Source of the DNA: a virus
Lineage: Duplodnaviria > Caudoviricetes
Direction: 5' to 3' (one strand)
Length of the DNA stretch: 42,597 nt
Virus record (IMG/VR): IMGVR_UViG_3300049182_000046
Coordinates: 1-42,597 of that record
Shown: positions 165-40,658 of the stretch, in pieces
Numbering within the stretch: the first letter of the stretch is position 1
Layout: every line of letters starts with the position of its first letter
Notes under the pieces: model-generated
The model's input: only the letters and a program-made list of their open reading frames with translations
Database searches by the model: none
Told to the model about the DNA's origin: nothing
Position numbers and translations under genes: made by a program

Positions 165-728
165 TTATTCGGTCGTTGCGTCTTCCGTGACTTCGCCGTC
201 GACTTCGGGGGAAGCTTCGGTGGCGGTTTCGGTCACAGATTCCTGGACTTCGGCGGTTTCGGTTGCCTTGGCCTCAGCAGCCTTGGCAGCAGCGCCGCCC
301 AGAGCCGGCTTCGGCAGATCGATCGCGACTTCTTCGTCATTCAGGCCGACCAGCTTGCCGTTCTTGCGGGCGATGGTGGCGAGCATGTTGCGGAGCGTCA
401 TCTTGGCGCGGCCCTGCGAACCGTGGGCCTTCGAGGCGACGAGTTCTTCGTAGTGCTTGACCTTGGCTTCGTCGATGCCGTTCTTGCGGCAGATCGAGAA
501 GAAAGCCGGGTACTCGAAGCCTTCCTTGCCGGAGCACTGGTTGTCGATGAACTTGGCGAGGTCGTCGTTCTTGGACTTCCAGCCAGCCGGAACGATCGAC
601 TTGGTCGTCTTTTCTTCGGCGGCGGCATCAGCAGCCGGGGCGTCGACAGCGGCAGAGCCGGCTTCGGTTTCGGGGGCAAATGCGATGAGGCTGGCGAGGG
701 CTGCGCCGAGTCCGATGGTCTTGATCAT
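165..728 (-). CDS. hypothetical protein with shared 'QGR-x-(R/K)MT' domain (paralog 1 of 3)
   Basis: 187 aa ORF with AGGAG RBS and its own sigma70 promoter; core resembles the C-termini of 4977..5966 and 10445..11032. Confidence 0.85.
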   Translation of the reverse strand: MIKTIGLGAALASLIAFAPETEAGSAAVDAPAADAAAEEKTTKSIVPAGWKSKNDDLAKFIDNQCSGKEGFEYPAFFSICRKNGIDEAKVKHYEELVASKAHGSQGRAKMTLRNMLATIARKNGKLVGLNDEEVAIDLPKPALGGAAAKAAEAKATETAEVQESVTETATEASPEVDGEVTEDATTE

Positions 729-7139: not shown

Positions 7140-7348
7140 GGGCGCTTCGCGGCCTGAATTTCCCCGATAGCCTCGGGGCCATTATCCATGAAAGCCAGCA
7201 CGGTGATGGCCGACTCCATGTCGAGGGTCACCGTTGCCTCGCGGTTGTGTTGGTCGGTGAAACGGAAACTGACTGCGGCGAATGCCTGACTCCGGGCAAC
7301 TTCGATCGGCGTGTCCAGCTGTTGTACTACGTTTACCGTGTTTTTCAT
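7115..7348 (-). CDS. hypothetical protein
   Basis: ATGA overlap with the upstream gene; MKNTVNVV... Confidence 0.6.
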   Translation of the reverse strand: MKNTVNVVQQLDTPIEVARSQAFAAVSFRFTDQHNREATVTLDMESAITVLAFMDNGPEAIGEIQAAKRPWWWMRPR

Positions 7349-7560
7349 ACGACCACCTGCAAGAAAGCGATGGCGCCGCAGACGAAGATGGTGAGCGACG
7401 CACACTCGATGATTTCACGGAAAGTCACGCCGAAGGCGATGTTGCGGTCGTACCACTTCACCGGTTCCTTGATCCGCATGTTGAACTTCGACATGAAGTT
7501 GTAGGGCTTGCCCGTGATGCGGGTGTATTCCTCGGGCGTTACTGGTTCTCTGGGCTGCAT
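7345..7560 (-). CDS. small protein with C-terminal hydrophobic helix
   Basis: AGGAGG RBS; C-terminal ASLTIFVCGAIAFLQVVV. Confidence 0.7.
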   Translation of the reverse strand: MQPREPVTPEEYTRITGKPYNFMSKFNMRIKEPVKWYDRNIAFGVTFREIIECASLTIFVCGAIAFLQVVV

Positions 7561-8592: not shown

Positions 8593-8755
8593 GCTGCTTC
8601 ATCCTCCAGTGGTAGCACCATTCGGGCTTGATGGCCGCGACGGCGTAAACGGTGTTCGCGTACCCCACGGGATCGGTGCAGTCCTGCTCCACGGCGATCC
8701 GCATCAGGGTGATGTAGTAGGCGATGCGCTCTGAGAGAGTCATGCCGTCCATCAT
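8585..8755 (-). CDS. small hypothetical protein (56 aa, not in the ORF track)
   Basis: ATGA overlap with the DUF2786 gene stop; MMDGMTLSERIAYYITLMRIAVEQDC... Confidence 0.6.
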   Translation of the reverse strand: MMDGMTLSERIAYYITLMRIAVEQDCTDPVGYANTVYAVAAIKPEWCYHWRMKQHD

Positions 8756-9753
8756 CGGATCGCCCCCTTCTTGGCTGCGTCGACCTGCGTGTCAAGGCCG
8801 ATCTTCGCACCGTCGTTGTAGCCCTCGCGGAATTCGCGCATTTGGGCGCGCTGCTCTTCCGGGGTGAGGGCGCGTGACCGCTCGCGACCGGAACCACGTG
8901 CTTCGCGGCGAGCTTGCTTCTTGAGGTAGGATTCGTACCACTTCTCGTTCTCTTCCTTGATACGCGCCTGTTTTTCCTCGAACTCGGCCTTGTACGCGGG
9001 GTCGTTCTGTAGCTTTTCCTCGTGGATGCGCTGCTTTTCGGCCTGTTCAGCGTACCATGCCGCCTCGCGGGCTTTTTGCGCTGCGCGTCTTGCCGCCGTG
9101 GTGCCCGGTTCCCAGCCGTTGACGTAGTCGTTGTTGAGGGCGTCTTCGTCCTCCATGATGTCCACGATCGTGAGGGCGGTGCCCGACGAGGCATATGCGG
9201 GGTGTTGTGCGCGGGCGGCTTCCTCAGCGGCCTTCTGCTTGGCCTCGGCGATGCGCTGTTCGCGCAGCTGCGAAAGGCGGAGGGCGATACGTTCTGCCAG
9301 TCCTTCGCGATAGGCGATCGCCTCCCGTACGAAGACCGACTTGTAGCCCTGCTCTTTCGCCCATGTCTGCGCCATCTTCTCGATTGCGCCCTGCAGGTAC
9401 TCGGCCATCAGTTCGGTACTGACCACGTTGGCGTGGGAACCGACGATGCGGTGTTCGTACGTGGGGCCGCGAGCCAGCCCCTTGATCGACCAATAGTGGC
9501 AGAAGTTCAGCTTGGCCACGTTCTCCCAGAGCTTGCGCTGCCAACCGTACAGACCGCCTTTCTGCTTTTGGTCCTTGCGCGGGCGTCCTTGCGCCGTGTG
9601 GCCGATCGCGGCGACGTCCAGATTGTGTTGCTCCAGCATTTCCTGCGCCTTGGCGGCGGCAGACTGTGCCTCGGCTTCGTTCGGGTTGTTGTTGGCGAGG
9701 GCGAGCAGCTTTTTTATGCGCTCGATGATCTTCTCGGAGACTTCGTGTGCCAT
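8752..9753 (-). CDS. DUF2786-domain protein
   Basis: N-terminal IIERIKKLLALANNNPNEAEAQSAAAKAQEMLEQHNL is typical of DUF2786; GAGGA RBS. Confidence 0.8.
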   Translation of the reverse strand: MAHEVSEKIIERIKKLLALANNNPNEAEAQSAAAKAQEMLEQHNLDVAAIGHTAQGRPRKDQKQKGGLYGWQRKLWENVAKLNFCHYWSIKGLARGPTYEHRIVGSHANVVSTELMAEYLQGAIEKMAQTWAKEQGYKSVFVREAIAYREGLAERIALRLSQLREQRIAEAKQKAAEEAARAQHPAYASSGTALTIVDIMEDEDALNNDYVNGWEPGTTAARRAAQKAREAAWYAEQAEKQRIHEEKLQNDPAYKAEFEEKQARIKEENEKWYESYLKKQARREARGSGRERSRALTPEEQRAQMREFREGYNDGAKIGLDTQVDAAKKGAIR

Positions 9754-9793
9754 TGGTTCTGTCCTCTCAGTGGCGTTGGTGTGTCGATGCCCC

Positions 9794-9822
9794 ACTGTAC
9801 CATAGCGGGGACACCGTGTCAA
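9794..9822 (-). promoter_or_regulatory. sigma70-type promoter
   Basis: TTGACA-17bp-TACAGT with TG extension. Confidence 0.7.
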
Positions 9823-9834
9823 GTGGGCTTCGAA

Positions 9835-10083
9835 TCAGTCCTCAACGGGCATGTCGCAGATCAGGCGCATGTCCTCGTCGTTCGAGAAGCGTTCGATCTT
9901 CCGTTCCCGCATGAAGGCAGGCAGATCGTCGAGGCTGATGCGTTGCCATCCTGTCTGTTCTGTGCCCTTGTGCATGGCTTCGTCGCCACGGTATTCAGTC
10001 TTCGTGGTGTACTTGCGGATGGTGCAGTACCCTGCGTTCAGGTCTGCCTCCATCGTCCAGTCGGTGGTCGTTGTTGTGGTCAT
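9835..10083 (-). CDS. hypothetical early protein
   Basis: 82 aa, GAGGAG RBS. Confidence 0.75.
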   Translation of the reverse strand: MTTTTTTDWTMEADLNAGYCTIRKYTTKTEYRGDEAMHKGTEQTGWQRISLDDLPAFMRERKIERFSNDEDMRLICDMPVED

Positions 10084-10094
10084 GGTGCTTCTCC

Positions 10095-10388
10095 TCAGGG
10101 AAGGCGCGATGCGGTCTGGAGGCGGCGAAAGTAAATAGCGTGCTTCACGCGTTCTCTGCGCGTCTCGTACTCTTCGTTCAGGCGCGTGGGTTCGGTGAGG
10201 AAGGCCGCGATCAGCGCCGCGATAAACGCGCTATCCTGTCGGGAGGTCCCGAACTGCCCGTTCTGGAGTACGTACCCGATCGTACGGAAGTTGTGGAGGC
10301 TGCTGATGGTTTTCGTGCAGCCCTCGTTCTTTGCTGCCTTTTTGCGGTCGCGAAGGTATTGCTGCTGGTAGGTCTTTTCGCTGTACAT
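10095..10388 (-). CDS. hypothetical early protein
   Basis: 97 aa, GGAG RBS. Confidence 0.7.
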   Translation of the reverse strand: MYSEKTYQQQYLRDRKKAAKNEGCTKTISSLHNFRTIGYVLQNGQFGTSRQDSAFIAALIAAFLTEPTRLNEEYETRRERVKHAIYFRRLQTASRLP

Positions 10389-10444
10389 GGTGCTTCTCCG
10401 GTGTTCCGATTAGAGGGGTGGGGGCTTGCGCCCCCAGAGGTGTC

Positions 10445-11032
10445 TCAGTGCTGGTGTTTCGCGATCCAGCTCTTCGGGGCCGGGATCGTGGATGCGTCGG
10501 GCAGGGCCAGTTCGCCCGCTTCTGCGACGACGCGCTGCAGAGCCAGACGGCCAGTCATCCGCAGACGGCCCTGCCAGCCCTTCGTGGTGCGGTTCCAGTG
10601 GCTGTGCTTGACGCCGTTCGCGTCGAGGATGGCCTCGAAAGCGGGCACGATCAGCTTGGTCTTCTCGTCCAGAGTGCGGCGGGCCAGTTCGATGGCGAGC
10701 CAGTCCGAGGTCGAGCGGGCCAGAGCCTTGACGGAGACGTCCTTCGGCTTCCGCATGGTGGCGGCGCGTTCCTTGTACTTGGCTTTGTACGTGGAGGCGA
10801 CGACGCTGTTCGGCAGGTCCTCTTCGTCGTCGAGGTCGATTGCGAGCGAGGCTGCGGCGGCAACCCACTGCTCGATCGTCAGGTCCGAAAGCTTCGTGGC
10901 TTCGACCGTCTCTTCACCCTGCTCTGCGGAGAAGACGTAGACGCCGTCTTCCTGCTCGAGGGTGAGGTCCGTGATCATGGGGTATGCTGCGAGTACTGCT
11001 TCGACGATTGCGCGGGTGGTGATGCGGGCCAT
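10445..11032 (-). CDS. hypothetical early protein with shared 'WQGR-x-RMT' domain (paralog 3 of 3)
   Basis: GGAGG RBS before MARITTRAIV; own promoter; C-terminal similarity to 4977..5966 and 165..728. Confidence 0.85.
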   Translation of the reverse strand: MARITTRAIVEAVLAAYPMITDLTLEQEDGVYVFSAEQGEETVEATKLSDLTIEQWVAAAASLAIDLDDEEDLPNSVVASTYKAKYKERAATMRKPKDVSVKALARSTSDWLAIELARRTLDEKTKLIVPAFEAILDANGVKHSHWNRTTKGWQGRLRMTGRLALQRVVAEAGELALPDASTIPAPKSWIAKHQH

Positions 11033-11089
11033 TGGTCTGTCCTCCGTCTGGCGTTGCGTCGGTGGCGTCGTGCCCTCCGATCTGTTTGC

Positions 11090-11118
11090 ATTGTACCACG
11101 GCGGAGAGGCGGTGTCAA
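11090..11118 (-). promoter_or_regulatory. sigma70-type promoter
   Basis: TTGACA-17bp-TACAAT with CGTGG extended -10. Confidence 0.85.
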
Positions 11119-11225
11119 TGGCTTTGGTGTTGCGTCGGACGCAGGTTTGATGTGCACGGAACGCATGGCTCGTGGGGCAGAGTTGGCACGGCGCTTGCAA
11201 GGAGACAGGAGGGCGTTGTGGTGTA

Positions 11226-11462
11226 GAGGCGGCGATACGATGAGGCGTGGCCCGGTGCCACCCATACGACTTATTACCACCGTACCCCAGTCGTTCGGGG
11301 GAGGGAGCTACGCGGGGTTTTTAGGGGGTTACTTTCGATGGTCAGTAGTGGTCCCCGTGTAGGGGGCCGCAGCCGAACGACTGGGACACGGTGGTAACAG
11401 GTCGCATGGGTGGCACCGGGCCACGGGTGCACCGCCCCTGCTTTTCGCCGTATCGCCGCCTC
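11226..11462 (-). ncRNA. long intergenic RNA hairpin (53-bp inverted repeat plus outer 14-bp stem)
   Basis: 11246-11298 pairs with 11373-11425 (5 mismatches, 4 of them G-U on the minus strand); 11226-11239 pairs with 11449-11462. Confidence 0.6.
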
Positions 11463-11583
11463 CACGCACCGCCTTTTCGTGTTCCCTTCGCCCCGCTGCG
11501 CCTACGCTCCTCCGACGCACGGACACAACGAAGCGCCTCCACCGTTCTGGCAGAGCCGCTTCGTGTCGTCGCTTCCGTGGGGC

Positions 11584-11784
11584 TCAGTCGTCGACGTTCT
11601 TCGCTGCGACGACAGCCATCGCGGCTTCGCACCAGATGCGATGAAGCTCTTCCACCGACCTTCCGGGCAGCTTCGCTTCTAGGTCTTCGCATTGGTCCTC
11701 GGGTGCGACGCGCTCGCTGAACGCGCCGATGACTGCGAGAAGGGCTTCATGCTGTTCGTTCGTGAGGTGGAGGGTCTTGGCCAT
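11584..11784 (-). CDS. small acidic early protein
   Basis: 66 aa, preceded by the duplicated 40-nt leader with AAGGA RBS. Confidence 0.8.
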   Translation of the reverse strand: MAKTLHLTNEQHEALLAVIGAFSERVAPEDQCEDLEAKLPGRSVEELHRIWCEAAMAVVAAKNVDD

Positions 11785-12068
11785 TGCGTTCTGTCCTTGT
11801 GTTTCACGTGTGGCGTTCTGTGGGGCTTCAGTTCATCATCCAGAGGAGGCTGCGCTCCAGAGCCGCTTCGATCGTCGGCTGCTTGTTCGTGACGAGGCGC
11901 GTTCTGTCGCTGCAGTACTGTACCATCCAGCGCCCGTCCTTCTGTTCGGATACGACGAAGGTTCCGTTCCAGCCGAGCTTCGCTGCTTCGTCGTGGAGGC
12001 GCTTCTCTGTGGCTTCGATCTTGGCGTTCATTGCGTTCTGTCCTTGTGTTTCACGTGTGACGTTCTGT
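11782..12068. repeat. 40-nt direct repeat (duplicated translation leader) at 11782-11821 and 12029-12068
   Basis: cattgcgttctgtccttgtgtttcacgtgtg(g/a)cgttctgt, one mismatch. Confidence 0.9.
11828..12031 (-). CDS. small early protein
   Basis: 67 aa MNAKIEATEK...; duplicated leader with RBS. Confidence 0.8.
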   Translation of the reverse strand: MNAKIEATEKRLHDEAAKLGWNGTFVVSEQKDGRWMVQYCSDRTRLVTNKQPTIEAALERSLLWMMN

Positions 12069-12301
12069 CGAGGTTCATGCACGGCGCGTTCTGTGGGCTA
12101 CGACGCTGCGAAGCGCTTCCTTTGCGCTCGTCGTGTCTGCGCGTCCCGGTTGCGCCGGGCTTCGCCTCGTTGGGGTTCGGTTGTGCCGGTTCGCCGCCCT
12201 GTTGGCCCTCGCTTGCGCGTGGGTTCGCCGCCCCGGTTGGGGTTCGCTTGGGCGCGGTTTGCCCCGCCCGCCTTTCGGCGTCGGGGCTGGCTTCGCCGCT
12301 G

Positions 12302-12613
12302 TTAGGGCCGGTTGGCGGCCGCTTGCGCGGCCTTCCGGGCTTCGTGGGCTTCCGCCTCGGCTTCGCCGTCGCTGCCGTCGGCGTCGCGGTGCGCTGCCGC
12401 TGCCCGCTCGTGCTCGTCTGCCGCCTCGTCGTTTCCGGCCTCGCGCTGCGCGTCTGCCGCTGCTTCGTGCGCGTCTGCCGCTGCCTCGTGCTCGGCTGTC
12501 GTGTCGCCGCCGTTTTCGTCTGCGGCCTCTGCGCGTTCGCTGGCGGCGGTCGCTGCTGCCGTGGCTTCTGCTGCCGCTGCGCGGCGGGCCTGCTCGTCGT
12601 GGTGGTCCTGCAT
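12302..12613 (-). CDS. first early gene: Ala/Glu/Asp/His-rich 103-aa protein encoded by a U-free reading frame
   Basis: AGGAG RBS at 12622-12626, ATG at 12613, TAA at 12302-12304, upstream promoter; no T in any internal codon. Confidence 0.85.
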   Translation of the reverse strand: MQDHHDEQARRAAAAEATAAATAASERAEAADENGGDTTAEHEAAADAHEAAADAQREAGNDEAADEHERAAAAHRDADGSDGEAEAEAHEARKAAQAAANRP

Positions 12614-12681
12614 TGTCGTTGCTCCTGTCGGTTGTGCCCCGCGCCCCCGGCGCGGGCGGGGCGAGCGCCGCCCCAGAGACA

Positions 12682-12710
12682 AGAATACCACGGCGCGGCG
12701 GGGGCCGCAA
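12682..12710 (-). promoter_or_regulatory. first early sigma70-type promoter
   Basis: TTGCGG-17bp-TATTCT with CGTGG extended -10, the same architecture as the other phage promoters. Confidence 0.7.
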
Positions 12711-12719
12711 TGTATCGGG

Positions 12720-13010
12720 GGTTGTATCGTGCGCGCCGCGCTCTCGCGCCGGGGTTGTGGCCTCGCGCCCCGCCGCCGCTCGCCTCGGGGTTGTGGCGCT
12801 GCGCCGCTGCTCGTCCCCCGTGTCTCGCGCCGGGGTTGTGGCCTCGCCTCTCTGCTCGCGTCGCGTGTCTCGCGTCCCGGTTGCGCTCTGCCCGCCTTGC
12901 TCGCCCCGGTTGTGTCGCCTCGGTCGGTTGTCCTCGCCCCGTCTCTGCGCGTCTGGGTTGTGTCCTCCCCTCGGGTTGTGGCCGCGCCGCCGCCTCGCGG
13001 CCGGGTTGTG
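12720..13010. repeat. array of 10 GGTTG(TG) motifs (CACAACC on the minus strand)
   Basis: GGTTG starts at 12720, 12753, 12789, 12834, 12879, 12908, 12926, 12956, 12974, 13004; the longer unit ctcgcgccggggttgtggcctcgc occurs twice. Confidence 0.8.
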
Positions 13011-13150
13011 CCGCCTCCGGGGCGCGTCGGCTTCGATACCCCCCATGACTATGGGTGCGGCCTAGACTGTGAAGGGGACCCGTTTCGCCGCGCGTCGTAT
13101 CGACAATGTAGTACCCCAGTGCCCCTCCGATTCCACGTTACCACACTACC

Positions 13151-33876: not shown

Positions 33877-35267
33877 TTCTTTTTCCCAATGTGCTGGAAG
33901 ACGGATTGGAAGACCGACTCTTTTCGCTGTAGTGCAAGCGCCGCCGATTTGTCGAGGGGTGTCCCAATCAGGTCGGCGTACATGTTCCCGCTACCAAGCT
34001 GCCCGATGCGGTGGTTCCGGTCCTCCAGCTGCGAGCGGTCGTCCAGCGAGTACGTGTTCTCGTAGAAGATCATGTTCGTGCAGTGGTCGTCGAGGTCGTC
34101 GAGGCCGAGCAGGGTGTGCCCGTACTTCGCCGCCTTGGTGAGGAAGATGATCCGGCAGTTCTTGTCGGTGTTGAAGCGACGCTTCTCCTCATCGATCTCC
34201 TGCTGCGTCATTCCCCCGACGATGCGGGCGGGCTGCAGTTTTTCGAAGCGGTCGTACAACATCGGCCTGACGACCTTGTGGTTGTAGACGACAATCAGCT
34301 TGCCCCGGATTTCCTCATAGTATTCCACCAGTGCATTGAGGCGGGGGTTCTTGGACGGCTCGACGAGCATGTGCACCTTTTGCTGTTCGTCGATGATGAA
34401 GCCAGCTTGAATTTGCGCTAGCTTGATGTATTTGGTGATGGCCTGATCGACCGTGACGCGCTCTTCGTCCGAAAGCCACAAGACGAACTGCTCTTCCATC
34501 TGTTTGTACATCGACAGCATTTCTGCCGTCATGCGGTATTCACGCAGGGTGTACAGCTTCGGGGGTAGGTCGGTCCACTCCGCCTTCGTGGCCCGGAATA
34601 CATGGGGGTCGATCTTCTGCGCCAATATGTCTTCGTTTTGCGCCCCGATGACCGACTTCATCTTGAAGCCGCCCATCTTGCAGAACGCGTTTTTGAAGGC
34701 ATAATAGACTTGACCCTGTAGATGGCCGATAAACCGCATCTGCGCCCACAGATCGTGTGGACCCTGCGACATAGGCTTCCCCGAAAGGATGCGCCTAAAC
34801 TCGAATAGCTGCGCGATTTCGAGCGCAGCCTTGGTTTGATCCGACCGGTGGTCCTTGAGTTTGATGCTCTCGTCAGCCGCTATGTAACACCGTCGCTCAC
34901 GCGTAAAATCCGCGATGAAGTCCCTAGCGGATTGATGGCGGATGGCTTCATAATTAATAATAAGGTTGGGTCGAGTGTTGAATCCACGACGAAGCGCAGA
35001 CCGTAGATACTTCTCGTTTCCGGACTCCCAGACCAAGGGGGTGATTGGGAATCCAAACTTGTCAACTTCGTCGGCCCATCCCCCTTTGAATGAGTTTGGG
35101 GCGATTGTGACCATTCGCTGGAGATCGTAGGCGACAGCGTTGTCAAGGAAGTCCCCGTAAGTAGTCGATGTTTTTCCAAGACCCTGCTCCATGAAATAGC
35201 CGAAGCCCGTTTTGCCGAAGCTGCGCTTCATTGCTTCGCGCTGCGCGCCTTGTGGTTCCCAAGTCAT
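33873..35267 (-). CDS. SNF2-family (SF2) helicase
   Basis: MEQGLGKT, IAADES, LSGKP, QLEDRNHRIGQ motifs. Confidence 0.9.
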   Translation of the reverse strand: MTWEPQGAQREAMKRSFGKTGFGYFMEQGLGKTSTTYGDFLDNAVAYDLQRMVTIAPNSFKGGWADEVDKFGFPITPLVWESGNEKYLRSALRRGFNTRPNLIINYEAIRHQSARDFIADFTRERRCYIAADESIKLKDHRSDQTKAALEIAQLFEFRRILSGKPMSQGPHDLWAQMRFIGHLQGQVYYAFKNAFCKMGGFKMKSVIGAQNEDILAQKIDPHVFRATKAEWTDLPPKLYTLREYRMTAEMLSMYKQMEEQFVLWLSDEERVTVDQAITKYIKLAQIQAGFIIDEQQKVHMLVEPSKNPRLNALVEYYEEIRGKLIVVYNHKVVRPMLYDRFEKLQPARIVGGMTQQEIDEEKRRFNTDKNCRIIFLTKAAKYGHTLLGLDDLDDHCTNMIFYENTYSLDDRSQLEDRNHRIGQLGSGNMYADLIGTPLDKSAALALQRKESVFQSVFQHIGKKK

Positions 35268-35824
35268 CAACGGCCCCTTTTCGAGTGTCGTTCAGAAATG
35301 TCGTTGGACATGTGTTGCATTAGCGGCCACACAAAAGCACGCCACACCTCAAAAGGCTGTGGAAACCCCGAGTGCTCCATTATGTAGTTGCTGATTTCAG
35401 CTTGGTAGCTCTGGTAGTGATTCTCCACAAACCGGTTGCCGAGCAGCCGCTCTACGCAGATGAAGTGATAGCCTTCCAGCAGGTCTGCCAGCTTGACGAT
35501 GGGGCGGAGGTTTGCGCTGATCACCGGCTTCGGAATCAGGTCTTGATGGTCCTCCACCATCCCCGCCTCGTCGATGTACGGCTTGACCATCGTCGGCGGA
35601 TCGCCCATGACCGCTTCGAGGTTGTCGTGGTTCAGGGCGTATTGGGATAGTTCGTAGAGTTCGTCGATCCGAGTAATACCGAACCAATCTTTGGCGATGC
35701 GGGTAGCCAGCCTTTCGACGTTGAAGCAGTGTTCCGCCACAGACTGCTTCTGGATCGTGTGGAGAACCGACCAACGAGGCACCACCGAAAGGCGGTGGTC
35801 TAGTTCTGTGAAAATGGGCTTCAT
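35267..35824 (-). CDS. datZ: HD-domain deoxynucleotide phosphohydrolase (dATPase, DatZ candidate)
   Basis: RW..QSVAEH..HD..E..GDPPT.VK..KLADLLE, a YfbR/DatZ-type HD pattern; lies in the purZ cluster. Confidence 0.8.
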   Translation of the reverse strand: MKPIFTELDHRLSVVPRWSVLHTIQKQSVAEHCFNVERLATRIAKDWFGITRIDELYELSQYALNHDNLEAVMGDPPTMVKPYIDEAGMVEDHQDLIPKPVISANLRPIVKLADLLEGYHFICVERLLGNRFVENHYQSYQAEISNYIMEHSGFPQPFEVWRAFVWPLMQHMSNDISERHSKRGR

Positions 35825-36015
35825 TTTGCCCTCTCTAACGCTTGCTTTACGTCCTTGAATTTTTCCAACAAGGTCACCATCTTGTGTGCCCCTCGTTCGT
35901 CAAGTGTTTGCAAAGCCGAAAGCCCGAAGGCTATGTTGGTATTGCAGCCCTCAAGGAGGAACTGGTATTGTTCCTCGGTAAGCTCCACCACTCTGTCCGG
36001 GGGATTATTGCTCAT
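35821..36015 (-). CDS. small hypothetical protein
   Basis: 64 aa MSNNPPDRVV..., ATGA-coupled on both sides. Confidence 0.7.
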   Translation of the reverse strand: MSNNPPDRVVELTEEQYQFLLEGCNTNIAFGLSALQTLDERGAHKMVTLLEKFKDVKQALERAK

Positions 36016-36326
36016 TTGCCGCGCTCCACGGCGATATTGGCGATCATCAGCGCGAAGTTGGCGACGTCCGCCGCTTCGAGGATGGTCTTGATGGAGTTGC
36101 CCCCGATTTCCTCGCGGAGTTCGGACACCTCGGCTTCGAGAAGTTTGAAAGCATGGTCGACTGTGTAACCTTCCCACTTACCTTTGTCGGCATTCTTCTC
36201 CAGCTTGTATACCATCGCCTCGACGAAGCGGCGGATATCGTGGGCGTAGTGCGCCATTTCGCCGGGGACGGTTACCGTGAAGCTTATGGCGGGCATTTTC
36301 GGGGTTATTTCTTTTTCGGATAGCAT
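36012..36326 (-). CDS. mazZ: MazG-like nucleotide pyrophosphohydrolase (MazZ candidate)
   Basis: LEAEVSEL..LEAADVANF = ExxE..ExxD; directly downstream of purZ. Confidence 0.65.
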   Translation of the reverse strand: MLSEKEITPKMPAISFTVTVPGEMAHYAHDIRRFVEAMVYKLEKNADKGKWEGYTVDHAFKLLEAEVSELREEIGGNSIKTILEAADVANFALMIANIAVERGK

Positions 36327-36345
36327 TTTATCCTCGTAAAGTTGT

Positions 36346-36365
36346 GGCGGGGATCGCTCCCCGCC
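36346..36365 (-). terminator. hairpin downstream of purZ
   Basis: GGCGGGGA-GCGA-TCCCCGCC on the minus strand (GNRA loop), weak U tail. Confidence 0.45.
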
Positions 36366-36368
36366 GTA

Positions 36369-37421
36369 TCACAGGTATTTCACGTCGTCGCTGGTCGGCC
36401 CACTGCACGTGATGACGTCAAACCACTGCAGCGCGGAATCCCGCACTCGGTCGATCGCTTCCAGCATATTGACCTGCCCCTCTTCATCGAGGTAGTTCAT
36501 GAAGTTGAGGAACACGAAGTTCGCGCCGTTGACATCGACGGCCTCCTGCAACTGCTGCTCGGAGAATGTGAATACGCGACGCACTCTCTGCGTGACGGTG
36601 GTAAGCTCGGGTGTCTGCCCGATCGCTTCCCACGTAGTCTCGGTCTGGTCGGTGTAATGATCGCCTGAGGAAAAGCCGTCGACATTCCCTACCCGGATGG
36701 GGTAGGTCCGCGCCGACACGTAGGTCTTGACGATCAGGTGTGGCGGAATGCGGGCGTCGGCCATGGCTTGCATAACGGTGCACTCCCGGCTCGTCACTTT
36801 AGGATAGAACTCGGAGTTGATGCCGAGCGAGAACCCTTGGCTCACCTCCACGAATACACGATCCGTGTAAGCCACCTGATGAACGTGGCGACGATACATG
36901 CTGACGTTGCTCGGAAGCAGCCCCTCGAAGAAGTAGTTTTGGAAGACGGCCATCGGATCGCGGTTGATCTTGTTGGCAAGCGCCGAACCCGTGCCGGACC
37001 GGGTCCCCGCAACGGCGGCGATGGTCCCCGTCTTTTCGGCCTCCTTGTCGTAGTCCATGATCACCGCTGCCATCGGATCAACGGTGATCGAGAGCATGGG
37101 GTACTTCTCTGCCTCGGCACGGAGAATGTCGAGGTCGATGATGGCTCCCGCCGACAGGTAAACGTGGGGGGCACTTTCGTAGTCCATCAGATACCAGGCA
37201 ACAGCGAAAGTGGGCAGCTGCTTGAGCACGTGCTTTTCTTCGCCGTGATAGAACGTGTGGCCTGAGTTGGGGCCAGCGTTGCTGACGACGAGGTCGAACC
37301 ACTGGTGGCTTTCAAAAGCCTGTTTGGCGAGCCATGCGGCAAGGACACCCTTGCCAGTGGAGCCGAACTGACCGTCGACGAGAACGTGAGCGCCCGAATG
37401 TTCGAACAGGTTGTTATGCAT
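36369..37421 (-). CDS. purZ: PurZ, N6-succino-2-amino-dAMP synthetase (adenylosuccinate synthetase paralog)
   Basis: 350 aa; DGQFGSTGKG (Ser in place of the PurA catalytic Asp), NAGPNSGHT, SQGFSL..YPKVTSR, TTVTQRVRR, FLNFMNY. Confidence 0.92.
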   Translation of the reverse strand: MHNNLFEHSGAHVLVDGQFGSTGKGVLAAWLAKQAFESHQWFDLVVSNAGPNSGHTFYHGEEKHVLKQLPTFAVAWYLMDYESAPHVYLSAGAIIDLDILRAEAEKYPMLSITVDPMAAVIMDYDKEAEKTGTIAAVAGTRSGTGSALANKINRDPMAVFQNYFFEGLLPSNVSMYRRHVHQVAYTDRVFVEVSQGFSLGINSEFYPKVTSRECTVMQAMADARIPPHLIVKTYVSARTYPIRVGNVDGFSSGDHYTDQTETTWEAIGQTPELTTVTQRVRRVFTFSEQQLQEAVDVNGANFVFLNFMNYLDEEGQVNMLEAIDRVRDSALQWFDVITCSGPTSDDVKYL

Positions 37422-37932
37422 TGGCGTCGCCCTTCGGAGCGAGCTTTGCGGCCATTGCAGCGGCAGCATCGGCTTCGATCTTGGCCTCGGCGCGGAGAGC
37501 TTCAAGGTCGACCCTTTCCTGAGCGCTCTTGACGGAAACGGGCGACGCCGGGGGCTTGCCCTGACCGACCGATTCTTCACGCCTGACTTCGACGCCGCCG
37601 AGGCCAGCGGCCAGAGCGGAGTAGCCGACCTTGTCCACGAAGTTGTCAGCGTTCTTCGGATCACCGTGAACGCGACGGGCGGTCTTGAGTAGGTCCATCA
37701 TCAAGGCCACGTCTTCCTGCCGGATGATGATGTCCGGAACGTCGATGTGTTGTGACGGCTGAGGACTATAGTAGGCCATCCGGTTCGTGTTGGTGAGGTA
37801 AGTCGACCAAAAGTCGGCGATCATCTGAAAGCTGTTTTCGGCGCCTCCGTGCTGATTGCCGCGTTCCGACCCAACCACCTTGGCCGCTGCGCCCATCACG
37901 TTGATGGCGTTGTTTGCGATTTTGTTGCTCAT
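37414..37932 (-). CDS. DUF6378-like protein
   Basis: ERGNQHG..ENSFQMIADFWSTYL..DVALMMDLLKTAR..DNFVDKVGYSAL. Confidence 0.75.
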   Translation of the reverse strand: MSNKIANNAINVMGAAAKVVGSERGNQHGGAENSFQMIADFWSTYLTNTNRMAYYSPQPSQHIDVPDIIIRQEDVALMMDLLKTARRVHGDPKNADNFVDKVGYSALAAGLGGVEVRREESVGQGKPPASPVSVKSAQERVDLEALRAEAKIEADAAAAMAAKLAPKGDANA

Positions 37933-38318
37933 TTCTGTCCTTGCTCCTTGTACCATCTGCGCAATGCGTCGCAGAATGTCTCGCCGTCTTGCTGGACGAC
38001 ACAGTTGTCCACGTGGGCGACGTCTGCCTCCCGGTGGAAATAATACGGCCCCTTGGTGCCGATGCGAACTCCGATCAACGTCGAAACGCCACCGGCAGCG
38101 TTGATGTCGACCATTTCGACGTGCTGCCTCGGGCGGGGCTTGAATTGCTTGCCGGTAAATCGCTTGACTTCGGCGAAGATTACCGGTAGGTCGGGCAGCT
38201 TGAGGATGGTGTCGAGTATTCCGACGGCGTACTGGTCCTCGATGCGTCGACCATAACCACCCTCAGCACGGACCTCCCGAACCATGTCCTTTTTGTACTC
38301 GGACTCAAGCTTTCCCAC
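37929..38318 (-). CDS. VRR-NUC / Holliday-junction-resolvase-like PD-(D/E)xK nuclease
   Basis: LESE..GILD..FAEVK..PRQ motif. Confidence 0.75.
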   Translation of the reverse strand: MGKLESEYKKDMVREVRAEGGYGRRIEDQYAVGILDTILKLPDLPVIFAEVKRFTGKQFKPRPRQHVEMVDINAAGGVSTLIGVRIGTKGPYYFHREADVAHVDNCVVQQDGETFCDALRRWYKEQGQK

Positions 38319-38547
38319 AAGTGCACTCCCGTGTGCCTTCGATCAGCTTCTGGCTGAAATTGTGAAGCAGCGCCGAGGCGTAGACCACTTGACTGATCAT
38401 CTGGCGATCGTACCACACTTCGGAAATCTGGTCCTTGCGCTCGACGATGAGCACCACATGCGCAATATCATCGTCTTCGATCGCTCGGCGCAGCAACTCC
38501 CGGTAATCCAAGTATTCCGAACCGTCCATTCTTACTACGTTTGCCAT
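38305..38547 (-). CDS. hypothetical protein
   Basis: 80 aa, coupled start (TGATG). Confidence 0.65.
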   Translation of the reverse strand: MANVVRMDGSEYLDYRELLRRAIEDDDIAHVVLIVERKDQISEVWYDRQMISQVVYASALLHNFSQKLIEGTRECTCGKA

Positions 38548-38756
38548 CACGAAATCCCGTTCTTGCCAGCCCACCATTGAGTAACGTGGAACTCAAACAA
38601 GTCCATGTCGTCGCCGTAAGGGCCAAATGTGTCGATTGTTTGCGACTTCGGCAACCAAATCTCGTTGCCGCCGTACTCGATCAGTTCTGCTTTCGCAGTT
38701 CTCGGGCCAACCTTGCGGCCCTCGAATGTTATGATCTCGTCGCCTCCACGGGCCAT
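38547..38756 (-). CDS. hypothetical protein
   Basis: AGGAG RBS; TAKAELI..EIWLPKSQ motif. Confidence 0.75.
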   Translation of the reverse strand: MARGGDEIITFEGRKVGPRTAKAELIEYGGNEIWLPKSQTIDTFGPYGDDMDLFEFHVTQWWAGKNGIS

Positions 38757-38778
38757 ATCGTCTCTCCTGTCTGATCCC

Positions 38779-38807
38779 AGTGTACCACGCCAGATGGCCA
38801 CTGTCAA
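38779..38807 (-). promoter_or_regulatory. sigma70-type promoter for the Z-synthesis operon
   Basis: TTGACA-17bp-TACACT with GCGTGG. Confidence 0.8.
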
Positions 38808-38822
38808 CCCGCCCTTATGTGT

Positions 38823-40658
38823 TTAAATGTTCCAGCCCTTTTTGCCCTTCAACTTCGGCCCGTAGGACGCCTCGGACCAGTGCAGCCCTGAACCCACTTC
38901 GAAAGGGATCGGCACGATCAAGTTAAACTGTGGCTCGTGCGGCACGTTCTCGACGATGCGAACCAACTCGCGGAGCAGGTCCACTCTGCCGGGGTCGCGC
39001 TGCCAGATCAACGAGTCGTGAATGGTCAGCAGCATCTGGATCAGGTCGGGGTAGGCGTCTTCGAACTGACAAGCCCGCAAGAGGCAGGTCTTGACGTGCT
39101 CGCCGCCACTGTTCTGAATGATACGCGAAATCGCTTTGTACGAAAAGCGGGGATCGGGCAAGTAAGCGCGACGACCGAGAATGGACTTGACGTAGCCCCG
39201 TCTTTTCGCCGTCTTTTTGGCGAGGTCCTGAAAGTCCTTGATCCGGGGGAACGCGTCTTCCAGATACCGACGATGGTCGCGGTTGGCTTCGCTGAGGCTG
39301 TAACCCATATGCATCGCGAGGGTCTTGGGGGACATCATCGTCAACATGCCGAGGCCAAGACGTTTAGCGTATTCACGGTCCATTTCCAGAACGTCGGAAG
39401 CTCGCTGGTGGATATCCAACTCCCCGGTTCGGTATCCGTGGATCAGGGCCTCGTCTTCCGAGTAGTGGGTGAAGAATCGCGGCTCCTGCTGCATCGCGTC
39501 GGCCTCTTCGAGGACCATGCCGTGATCGGCGACGACGAGCGGTCGCACAACCTTACCGATGATGATGTTGCGCTTCGGGTAGGCTTGGAGATTCGGCTCG
39601 GAGCAGGAGAAACGCGACCCCGTAGCGCCGTATTCTTCCGATTTCGCTTGATTGAGAATAGCGTGTACGCGCCCGTTAATGTTGTGACTTGAAACCAGTG
39701 GGGCGATGAAGCTAGATTCCGCTTTCTCAAGCTGCCTGATGGTGAGGATATCCTGCCCCATCTGCGTCTTCTCCAACCACTTCTCACGAAAAGACAGCTG
39801 GCCATTGGGGTGCCTCGTGGTTGGATCGGTACGATCGAATTGGTGGTCCTCGAAACCGTTGGCCCGGAACAGCTGCTCCAACTCGCCGTTGGATCGTACG
39901 TTGAAGCCGGGAGGGAATTTCTGCTTCGCCGTTTCGACGGAGTCCTTCAACTGTACCGCCACTTTTTCGGCGTAGTCACCATCTATGCGTATTCCACGGT
40001 GGTGCATGCGGGCGACGTAGGGCAGTAGGTCGCACTCCAGCTGCCACGGAACACGCAGGTTATCCTCGTCGAGGATGCGCTGTTGGGACTTCCACAGTTC
40101 AAGCGTGGACACGCCGTCGCCCGTGGCGTAATCGACTACATCGAAATGGTCCCCCGGCATGCGCCAGAAGTTGCCCATGGACTTGCGATCCGGCATCCCG
40201 CCGAAGCGCTCGGCGATGGCGCGATACAGAGCGTCCCCTTTCTTCTCGGTAACCCGGTGGCGGCGAGCGCAAGCGTCGAGGCTGAGTTCAGTGGTGGTAT
40301 CGTCGATCAGCGTCTCGTTAATCTGGGTATCCTCACAGGGGGACCCGACTACGATGCCACGGCGAAGAGAGCCACGAAGATCAAAACCAAGATGATGGCC
40401 GATTGTGCGATATCCAAGACGAGTGCGCTCAGCAAAGGCGACGGCCAATTCAGCTTCAAATTCGTCCACCATCGGGATATTGCCGCCAGCTTCGTGTCGA
40501 ACTGGAACATAGACGGAGTGCTCCCAATCGGTGAAGACGTACCCCACGATGATGCTCGTGACTTCGAGGCCGTCGGTTTCAGTGTCATACGCCATTTCTG
40601 GCGAGGTGCGGACCATCCGAAGCGCGAGCGACGGGTCGATAATGCCGGTTTTGATCAT
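38823..40658 (-). CDS. dpoZ: family A DNA polymerase with 3'-5' exonuclease (DpoZ candidate)
   Basis: Exo I YDTET, Exo II HHLGFD, Exo III YATGD; motif A DAMQQEPR, motif B REYAKRLGLGMLTM, motif C TIHDS; adjacent to the purZ operon. Confidence 0.8.
   Translation of the reverse strand: MIKTGIIDPSLALRMVRTSPEMAYDTETDGLEVTSIIVGYVFTDWEHSVYVPVRHEAGGNIPMVDEFEAELAVAFAERTRLGYRTIGHHLGFDLRGSLRRGIVVGSPCEDTQINETLIDDTTTELSLDACARRHRVTEKKGDALYRAIAERFGGMPDRKSMGNFWRMPGDHFDVVDYATGDGVSTLELWKSQQRILDEDNLRVPWQLECDLLPYVARMHHRGIRIDGDYAEKVAVQLKDSVETAKQKFPPGFNVRSNGELEQLFRANGFEDHQFDRTDPTTRHPNGQLSFREKWLEKTQMGQDILTIRQLEKAESSFIAPLVSSHNINGRVHAILNQAKSEEYGATGSRFSCSEPNLQAYPKRNIIIGKVVRPLVVADHGMVLEEADAMQQEPRFFTHYSEDEALIHGYRTGELDIHQRASDVLEMDREYAKRLGLGMLTMMSPKTLAMHMGYSLSEANRDHRRYLEDAFPRIKDFQDLAKKTAKRRGYVKSILGRRAYLPDPRFSYKAISRIIQNSGGEHVKTCLLRACQFEDAYPDLIQMLLTIHDSLIWQRDPGRVDLLRELVRIVENVPHEPQFNLIVPIPFEVGSGLHWSEASYGPKLKGKKGWNI

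Follow-up and report, generated by a model that had tools for sequence, protein, structure and literature searches.

A tract of 923 nt in a bacteriophage genome excludes thymine almost completely from its coding strand, and sequence comparisons indicate that this T-free tract is real, that it is maintained by selection and, with moderate confidence, that it is tied to a genome in which 2-aminoadenine (Z) would replace adenine. The window, meaning the whole stretch of DNA analyzed (42,597 nt), corresponds to an entire virus record that is 99% complete. The tract occupies positions 12113-13035, and its 16 coding-strand T residues comprise 14 in a promoter block, one in the ATG and one in the TAA of a 103-amino-acid open reading frame that runs from 12613 to 12302 on the minus strand. 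Seen from the plus strand, the tract consists of A-free runs at 12727-13035 (309 nt), 12613-12663 (51 nt), 12305-12611 (307 nt) and 12113-12303 (191 nt), and the longest A-free run in the rest of the window is 56 nt. The elements of the region are as follows.

13045..13082, minus strand: junction of the form GGGTCCC-(about 30 nt)-GGGGG, a motif present in 13 of the 19 genomes that reach 36 kb, including a PurZ-negative one (G008)
12727..13035, minus strand: noncoding T-free leader of 309 nt, with about ten CAACC-core repeats at a spacing of 18 to 45 nt
12664..12726, minus strand: promoter block of weak sigma-70 type with an extended -10, holding 14 of the 16 coding-strand Ts of the tract
12614..12663, minus strand: T-free 5' leader with an AGGAG ribosome-binding site 8 nt before the ATG
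12302..12613, minus strand: 103-amino-acid His/Ala gene in which ATG and TAA are the sole codons containing T; the product is predicted to be a four-helix bundle with a Gly-Asn turn
12113..12301, minus strand: T-free trailer, part of the 191-nt run 12113-12303; its counterpart in a second lineage (G001) is 165 nt
8752..12031, minus strand: following early genes, with low but nonzero third-position T (0.02 to 0.08)

The junction motif separates a leftward early arm from a rightward late arm, and the T-free tract begins directly after it. Judged by its position, the motif is likely the terminase cut or packaging site; contigs run through it, and the accessible text of the paper on Ochrobactrum phage vB_OspP_OH (here OH) contains no terminus mapping. 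In G013, G014, G016 and G017, the spacer of the junction is an inverted repeat.

An earlier note, made from the window sequence alone, had described a 103-codon gene without internal T, and only codon 1 and the stop codon were indeed found to contain that letter. What the note missed was the extent of the exclusion, which reaches a further 309 nt beyond the promoter on its upstream side and 191 nt past the stop. Its residue counts were correct on recount (40 Ala, 27 Asp/Glu and 7 His, the last at positions 4, 5, 42, 49, 68, 75 and 90), and the product, which is 39% Ala, is built from 12 amino-acid types with no internal L, I, V, F, Y, W, C or M. The probability of 307 nt without T is 9e-15 even if a T content of only 10% is assumed. 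Given early-gene codon usage, the same protein would be expected to use 11.5 T-containing codons and uses none (log10 P = -5.8). Two further IMG/VR assemblies contained identical A-free runs and an identical open reading frame.

T-free DNA holds no stop codons and is open in all frames, and thus the length of the open reading frame is no evidence of coding by itself. Comparison with a second lineage, represented by the fragments G001 and G002 (terminase 81%, capsid 90%), indicated an equal layout with T-free runs of 279, 289 and 165 nt, in which the 279-nt run is the leader counterpart and carries 45-nt repeats. The gene in this lineage encodes a 108-amino-acid homologue and contains one internal T. 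Nucleotide identity between the window and G001 was 0.71, 0.65 and 0.49 at the first, second and third codon positions, and the protein alignment scored 166 against 98 +/- 10 for shuffled sequences; scores for the other same-strand frames were within the shuffle range. A 323-codon plus-strand open reading frame (12077-13048) and its G001 counterpart scored 120 against 90 +/- 15 when shuffled, a result also placed within the shuffle range, and this candidate was rejected. Within strain X19, which has 60 differences in the tract, 36 substitutions are listed in the open reading frame and 22 of these fall at third codon positions (p = 6e-4); among the insertions listed for X19, those in the body of the open reading frame are 3 nt each and in frame. 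Strain X21 carries a 21-nt duplication equal to one heptad.

The signals for expression are also present. The AGGAG ribosome-binding site claimed in the earlier note was confirmed, and a custom pattern found the promoter that it had claimed as TTGCGG-17-TATTCT with an extended -10 TG, the -35 element beginning at 12710. That promoter is weak and was missed by a consensus promoter scanner, which made no call on it, and a canonical TTGACA-17-TATGAT lies at the equivalent position in G001. The gene stands first in the early transcription unit, in agreement with the proposal that its product is made early. A search for structured RNA in the tract found none (fold z = -0.2, no Rfam match), and blastn of the tract returned only short, chance-level matches. 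Kinetoplastids insert U into messages by RNA editing. Editing of that type was rejected here because the conserved frame is the unedited one. Two sequencing runs filed as RNA were flagged as probably DNA, and no RNA source of the tract is listed. The third-position bias, the homologues, the in-frame insertions and the kept start, stop and ribosome-binding site support the view that the gene is real. From these patterns of conservation, we conclude that the T-free open reading frame is a real gene.

Strain comparison indicated that the exclusion is kept as the sequence diverges. Across 12113-13035, four runs, each from a separate study, departed from the window sequence at 60 (X19), 44 (X21), 6 and 4 positions, and changes to or from plus-strand A numbered 0/60, 0/44, 0/6 and 0/4, respectively; X19 and X21, with many variants in common, are only partly independent. 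Outside the tract, about 15 of 46 changes in X19 go to A, an approximate count obtained as the difference of two comparisons with unlike likeness limits (inside versus outside, Fisher 8e-7). Among the differences listed for the four strains, the promoter block showed no change from A. We conclude from the absence of such changes that T exclusion is maintained by selection.

The tract is rare. A- or T-free runs longer than 100 nt occurred solely in the window phage and in G001/G002 among 160 capsid-anchored loci (1.62 Mb), many of which stop short of the junction, and 13 further genomes contained no such run over 86 nt. Moreover, the tract is absent from 11 of the 12 scorable PurZ genomes, and the six named Z-phages differ from the window phage in having no A- or T-free run longer than 67 nt and no His/Ala gene. 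The tract is therefore not required by PurZ genomes in general. The His/Ala gene itself was present in 2 of 25 related genomes or contigs and in 0 of 69 other loci.

The window phage has the genes expected of a Z-genome. Its cluster is as follows.

35267..40658, minus strand: Z-pathway cluster, from Pfam, PHROG and NCBIfam matches, PurZ alignment and comparison with OH
35267-35824, minus strand: datZ-like HD hydrolase, dATP triphosphohydrolase PHROG (E 7e-18)
36012-36326, minus strand: probable mazZ, 52% identical to an annotated NTP pyrophosphohydrolase of OH
36369-37469, minus strand: purZ, PHROG 1211 PurZ (E 6e-62)
38823-40658, minus strand: family A DpoZ-like polymerase, with DpoZ as the best-scoring NCBIfam model

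PurZ carries, in an FGSTGKG motif, a Ser that is invariant with phiVC8 and OH and that replaces the catalytic Asp of PurA, a replacement given as the criterion for PurZ in the accessible text of PMC8515928. The NCBIfam PurZ and DpoZ models were the best models for their proteins and scored under their curated cutoffs (228 of 300 and 263 of 500 bits, respectively). The datZ-like gene and the probable mazZ adjoin purZ, the arrangement that marks a PurZ-type Z-genome phage. The closest named relative is OH (PurZ 63%), which has the same gene cluster, genome layout, junction motif and T-poor early genes; phiVC8, ZP6, S-2L, SH-Ab 15497 and PMBT28 are named Z-genome phages that share the PurZ/DatZ/MazZ/DpoZ cluster. 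G001 and G002 are fragments and stand outside the purZ comparison. We conclude from gene content that the DNA of the window phage likely contains Z in place of adenine.

A weaker form of the bias extends through the early genes of PurZ relatives. With the T-free gene itself left out, T at four-fold sites was 0.07 to 0.16 within 3.5 kb of the junction against 0.18 to 0.29 elsewhere in every one of the 12 scorable PurZ genomes (per-genome p values between 7e-13 and 6e-3), a comparison that relies on heuristic gene calls and on mutually related genomes, 6 of 19 genomes having been dropped for want of the junction motif and 15 metagenome loci having been left out of purZ scoring. Across these relatives, the earliest genes are poor in T at silent sites, and in two lineages T falls to zero. 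G008 (L023) is a complete relative with the same polymerase, primase, helicase and capsid module. No match to purZ, datZ or mazZ was found in it, which makes it a natural non-Z control, and its four-fold-site T was 0.20 in early genes versus 0.17 in the rest (n = 120, p = 0.32); it is the single PurZ-negative control and its early genes are not orthologous, G028 (a provirus with no terminase match) and G035 (a fragment) having been left out. Early genes of OH that lie on the opposite strand are T-poor in their own coding strand (0/74 third positions in p01 and 5/121), and opposite-strand early genes when pooled gave T4 0.14 and A4 0.16, that is, part depletion. We conclude from these sequences that the T bias appears to follow the direction of transcription more than the physical strand.

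The explanation that we favor, with a probability of about 0.45, is selection that keeps Z out of the strand used as template by host RNA polymerase. Each coding-strand T corresponds to a template-strand Z, and template Z would slow the unmodified host RNA polymerase. The zone is probably the leading end of the genome, and probably also the first stretch to be transcribed once the DNA has entered, and the first genes, read from a single genome copy by the host enzyme, would be under the strongest pressure against template Z. The protein family, made of Ala-, His- and acid-rich helical hairpins, had few residues that require T to begin with, so that zero T could be reached in two lineages, with T kept only where promoter, start and stop demand it. 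The accessible text of PMC10786293 reports that Z-substituted coding regions behind a T7 promoter gave cell-free yields 35% and 85% lower, and it cites Tan et al. 2022 for a block of T7 RNA polymerase and Pol II of up to 92% by one Z, data that concern those enzymes and not the bacterial multisubunit enzyme. Template Z and mRNA U are indistinguishable by sequence. In the experiments of Tan and colleagues, Z was reportedly placed in the transcribed strand. The earlier note had suggested a link between the locus and Z, through a protein that could modify RNA polymerase and permit Z read-through. Depletion of silent-site T in early genes across the clade supports a connection with Z. No finding connects the protein itself with RNA polymerase, and its distribution rules out a general role in Z read-through, as it was found in just 2 of 25 related genomes or contigs.

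Two observations run against selection on template Z. First, the 309-nt leader is T-free although it sits upstream of the sole promoter found, and T counts in the leaders of other PurZ genomes are no different from that of the control (22 to 55 per 250 nt versus 34). Second, early genes in G005, G006, G011 and G009 show the opposite bias, with no third-position A, 23 to 32% T and 0.5 to 3% A:

G005 464-676, plus strand: A-poor gene with a ribosome-binding site and its own sigma-70 promoter
G006 37338-37535, plus strand: A-poor gene with a ribosome-binding site and its own sigma-70 promoter
L080 48-278 (G011), minus strand: A-poor gene with a ribosome-binding site
G009 7264-7452, minus strand: A-poor, Trp/Phe-rich gene with a ribosome-binding site and its own sigma-70 promoter

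The genes of G005, G006 and G011 form one family under purifying selection (identity between G005 and G006 of 0.83, 0.86 and 0.49 by codon position), and the G009 gene is unrelated.

Both observations would be accommodated if the entering end instead kept all of its Z on one strand, an explanation that we consider unlikely. Such DNA would lack both palindromes that contain A/T and Z residues in close opposition, and would thereby evade a host nuclease or glycosylase dependent on such sites in both strands until the phage counterdefense was made. The rule would account for a leader that looks untranscribed, would unite the T-free zone with the mirror A-poor genes and agrees with the single occurrence in the tract of any of the 12 kinds of A/T-containing 4-nt palindrome. 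It is also in keeping with the accessible text of bioRxiv 10.1101/2023.10.17.562781, according to which dZ-DNA is still cut by 46.9% of 147 restriction enzymes and Mrr+ cells reduce transformation about 50-fold. Sites made only of G and C are nevertheless abundant in the tract (CGCG 25, GCGC 29, CCGG 14 and GGCC 12), the graded bias tracks the coding strand rather than the physical strand, the A-poor genes are flanked by A-rich DNA, and no Z-dependent defense system was found in the literature as accessible, the preprint on the END nuclease included.

Selection could alternatively act on the RNA, which we regard as quite unlikely: a U-free transcript would resist a U-directed ribonuclease or tRNA loss, and an anti-defense protein would still be made while other mRNAs were destroyed. 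Cas13a-like enzymes, RNase E and MazF-type toxins are candidates for U-directed ribonucleases. Evasion of this kind agrees with the restriction of T to promoter, start and stop and with a bias that tracks the coding strand, and the A-poor genes could be its counterpart against A-directed nucleases. However, T is absent to the same degree from the leader, which precedes the promoter, and the weaker bias tracks the presence of purZ (12 genomes versus 1), which an RNase would not predict. Moreover, motif-specific RNases would require avoidance of their motifs only, and the TA and AT dinucleotide odds in early genes equal those in other regions.

An effect of replication or mutation, in which the plus strand of the zone is made or remade without dZTP or dATP, or a local process removes A, has little probability in our judgment. 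Fill-in of a terminal repeat by a host polymerase would be one example, and the gene would merely be tolerant. The zone begins at the presumed packaging junction, covers coding and noncoding DNA alike, and has a plus strand that runs 5' to 3' toward that junction, all as such an effect would have it, but T depletion that follows gene direction over 3.5 kb is left unexplained. The plus strand of the tract retains 37% C, unlike the result of single-strand deamination, and no reverse transcriptase or deaminase was found among the 25 open reading frames scanned by Pfam. Equally improbable is a zoned alphabet, in which a Z-free template at the entering end would yield a first-gene factor that binds the polymerase or a Z-sensing defense and so unlocks the Z-genome, and the mirror A-poor genes would be the later half of the switch, expressed after the block is lifted. 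That the locus is no gene at all, and instead an assembly or low-complexity artifact in which a stop-free compositional tract holds a chance ATG, would suit DNA that is open in every frame and a protein with no Pfam, PHROG or NCBIfam family but is scarcely credible for a tract held by independent assemblies and by diverged strains from other studies, with third-position bias, three homologues (P0003, P0005 and P0004) and a confident predicted fold.

Homologues place limits on what the exclusion means for the protein. P0003 is a 93-amino-acid protein (67% over 52 amino acids, pI 4.99) from one 943-nt Logan contig, and P0004 is a 199-amino-acid NCBI protein from a 33.6-kb contig that is basic (pI 9.8) and contains two copies of the His/Ala hairpin; both share an H-x6-H...GN...H-x6-H motif with the window protein. 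The expectation in the earlier note that homologues would likewise be U-free was contradicted: T is needed for one codon (Ile) in P0005, the G001 homologue, for at least 8 internal residues in P0003 and for at least 18 in P0004, the last two minima being deduced from protein sequences rather than DNA. Profile searches returned solely P0003 and P0004 and nothing among longer proteins, where a negative is weak evidence, and tblastn of the protein against named phages gave no match. A metagenome scan with the three-sequence alignment yielded 0 of 599 candidate stretches, and alignment-based viral scans returned solely copies of the window phage and, having missed G001, are insensitive. No Pfam (E<=1), PHROGs or NCBIfam family was assigned to the protein, and its best ESM Atlas feature score, 0.82, is a lead only. 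We conclude that, on the sequences available, the His/Ala family is T-poor by nature and not obligatorily T-free.

AlphaFold2 predicted four helices (2-34, 39-58, 62-77 and 83-100; pLDDT 88.6, pTM 0.82) for this Ala-rich protein from a shallow alignment of three sequences, a predicted bundle that supports the earlier suggestion of a helical protein. The invariant polar residues are H42, H49, H68, H75, a DEN cap, the GN turn, a DG and E86, and the spacing on either side of the turn would bring H42 opposite H75 and H49 opposite H68 across helices. Those predicted cross-helix pairs make plausible the metal binding that had been proposed, and we consider it likely that the pairs 42/75 and 49/68 bind a divalent metal. 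The window protein is acidic as claimed (pI 4.45), but its acidity is not conserved, as the G001 homologue is balanced in charge (pI 6.70, 12 D/E versus 11 K/R). A DNA mimic, another earlier proposal, is weakened by that lack of conserved strong negative charge, and metal binding appears to fit the modeled protein better.

Structural comparison pointed to no particular family. Foldseek found no match at E<=1e-3 among PDB and viral structures, and the fold matches by VIA were generic bundles, all tied, that included designed proteins, HPt domains and SmbP. The HPt domains CheA P1 and HptB (Z scores of 10 to 11, 7 to 9% identity) were tied with designed bundles, and the protein had no Pfam Hpt match. 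SmbP (PDB 3u8v) is a four-helix bundle, as is predicted here, and has His at 7-residue spacing, as does the window protein (VIA Z score 10.2, rmsd 2.2 over 81 residues), but identity was 12% and the match was again tied with generic bundles (10 to 11). Membership of the SmbP family was not indicated by Pfam, and the best PDB sequence match (E 0.26) was to ankyrins; unlike SmbP, the window protein could carry no signal peptide, as it lacks hydrophobic residues. No Ocr or other DNA-mimic fold appeared among the matches listed, in which generic bundles predominate. The role that we consider most likely for the protein, albeit with low confidence, is an effect on a host process, such as a metal- or His-dependent defense or signaling, during the opening minutes of infection.

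T7 offers the nearest parallel in layout. Host RNA polymerase reads the T7 leading region, which makes up the first 0.9 kb or so of the early arm, and the first T7 gene, 0.3, encodes the small, acidic DNA mimic Ocr. The window phage resembles T7 in having an early-arm start of about 0.9 kb and a small acidic first gene; Ocr has no sequence or fold match to the window protein among those listed, and the acidity of the latter is not conserved. T7 avoids specific restriction motifs, whereas the window phage avoids a whole letter, and if restriction-site avoidance is the cause, the exclusion falls within a known kind of phenomenon. Messages depleted of a nucleotide feature are also familiar: ACA-less transcripts resist MazF, and uridine-depleted mRNA has been made synthetically. 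The window transcript is alike in lacking such a feature and differs in that the missing feature is an entire letter, absent from a natural gene and from its flanks, silent and noncoding sites included.

We know of no other case in which a whole letter is excluded. Between start and stop, this natural protein-coding message is written in three letters. No description of a Z-phage gene or tract lacking one base was found in the openly accessible literature, as covered by the accessible text of PMC12884076, PMC8515928, PMC7139368, PMC10786293, PMC10504480, PMC9997456, PMC12191111, bioRxiv 2023.10.17.562781 and bioRxiv 2025.10.22.683976, and the T-free tract is apparently undescribed. The handling of a fully Z-substituted genome by host RNA polymerase appears unsettled, and the locus would be a natural readout of it, predicting a measurable, strand-specific cost of Z.

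Other features of these genomes were noted. Early promoters at 11118, 9822, 6665 and 6045 (minus strand) combine TTGACA, a C/G-rich 17-nt spacer and an extended -10 TG, elements that may matter for the opening of Z-DNA. Eight purZ-containing genomes (G013, G014, G016, G017, G026, G029, G030 and G031) gave no tblastn match to the window datZ, and another dATP-removing enzyme may stand in for it there. An imperfect inverted repeat of about 180 nt (11246-11425) lies in a gene-poor part of the early arm, and a 59-bp direct repeat (11775-11830 and 12019-12077) lies upstream of two small early genes. Each copy of the direct repeat contains what we take to be a parS-like site, and fuller palindromes, presumably also parS-like, occur in the early regions of G003, G004, G007, G009 and OH.
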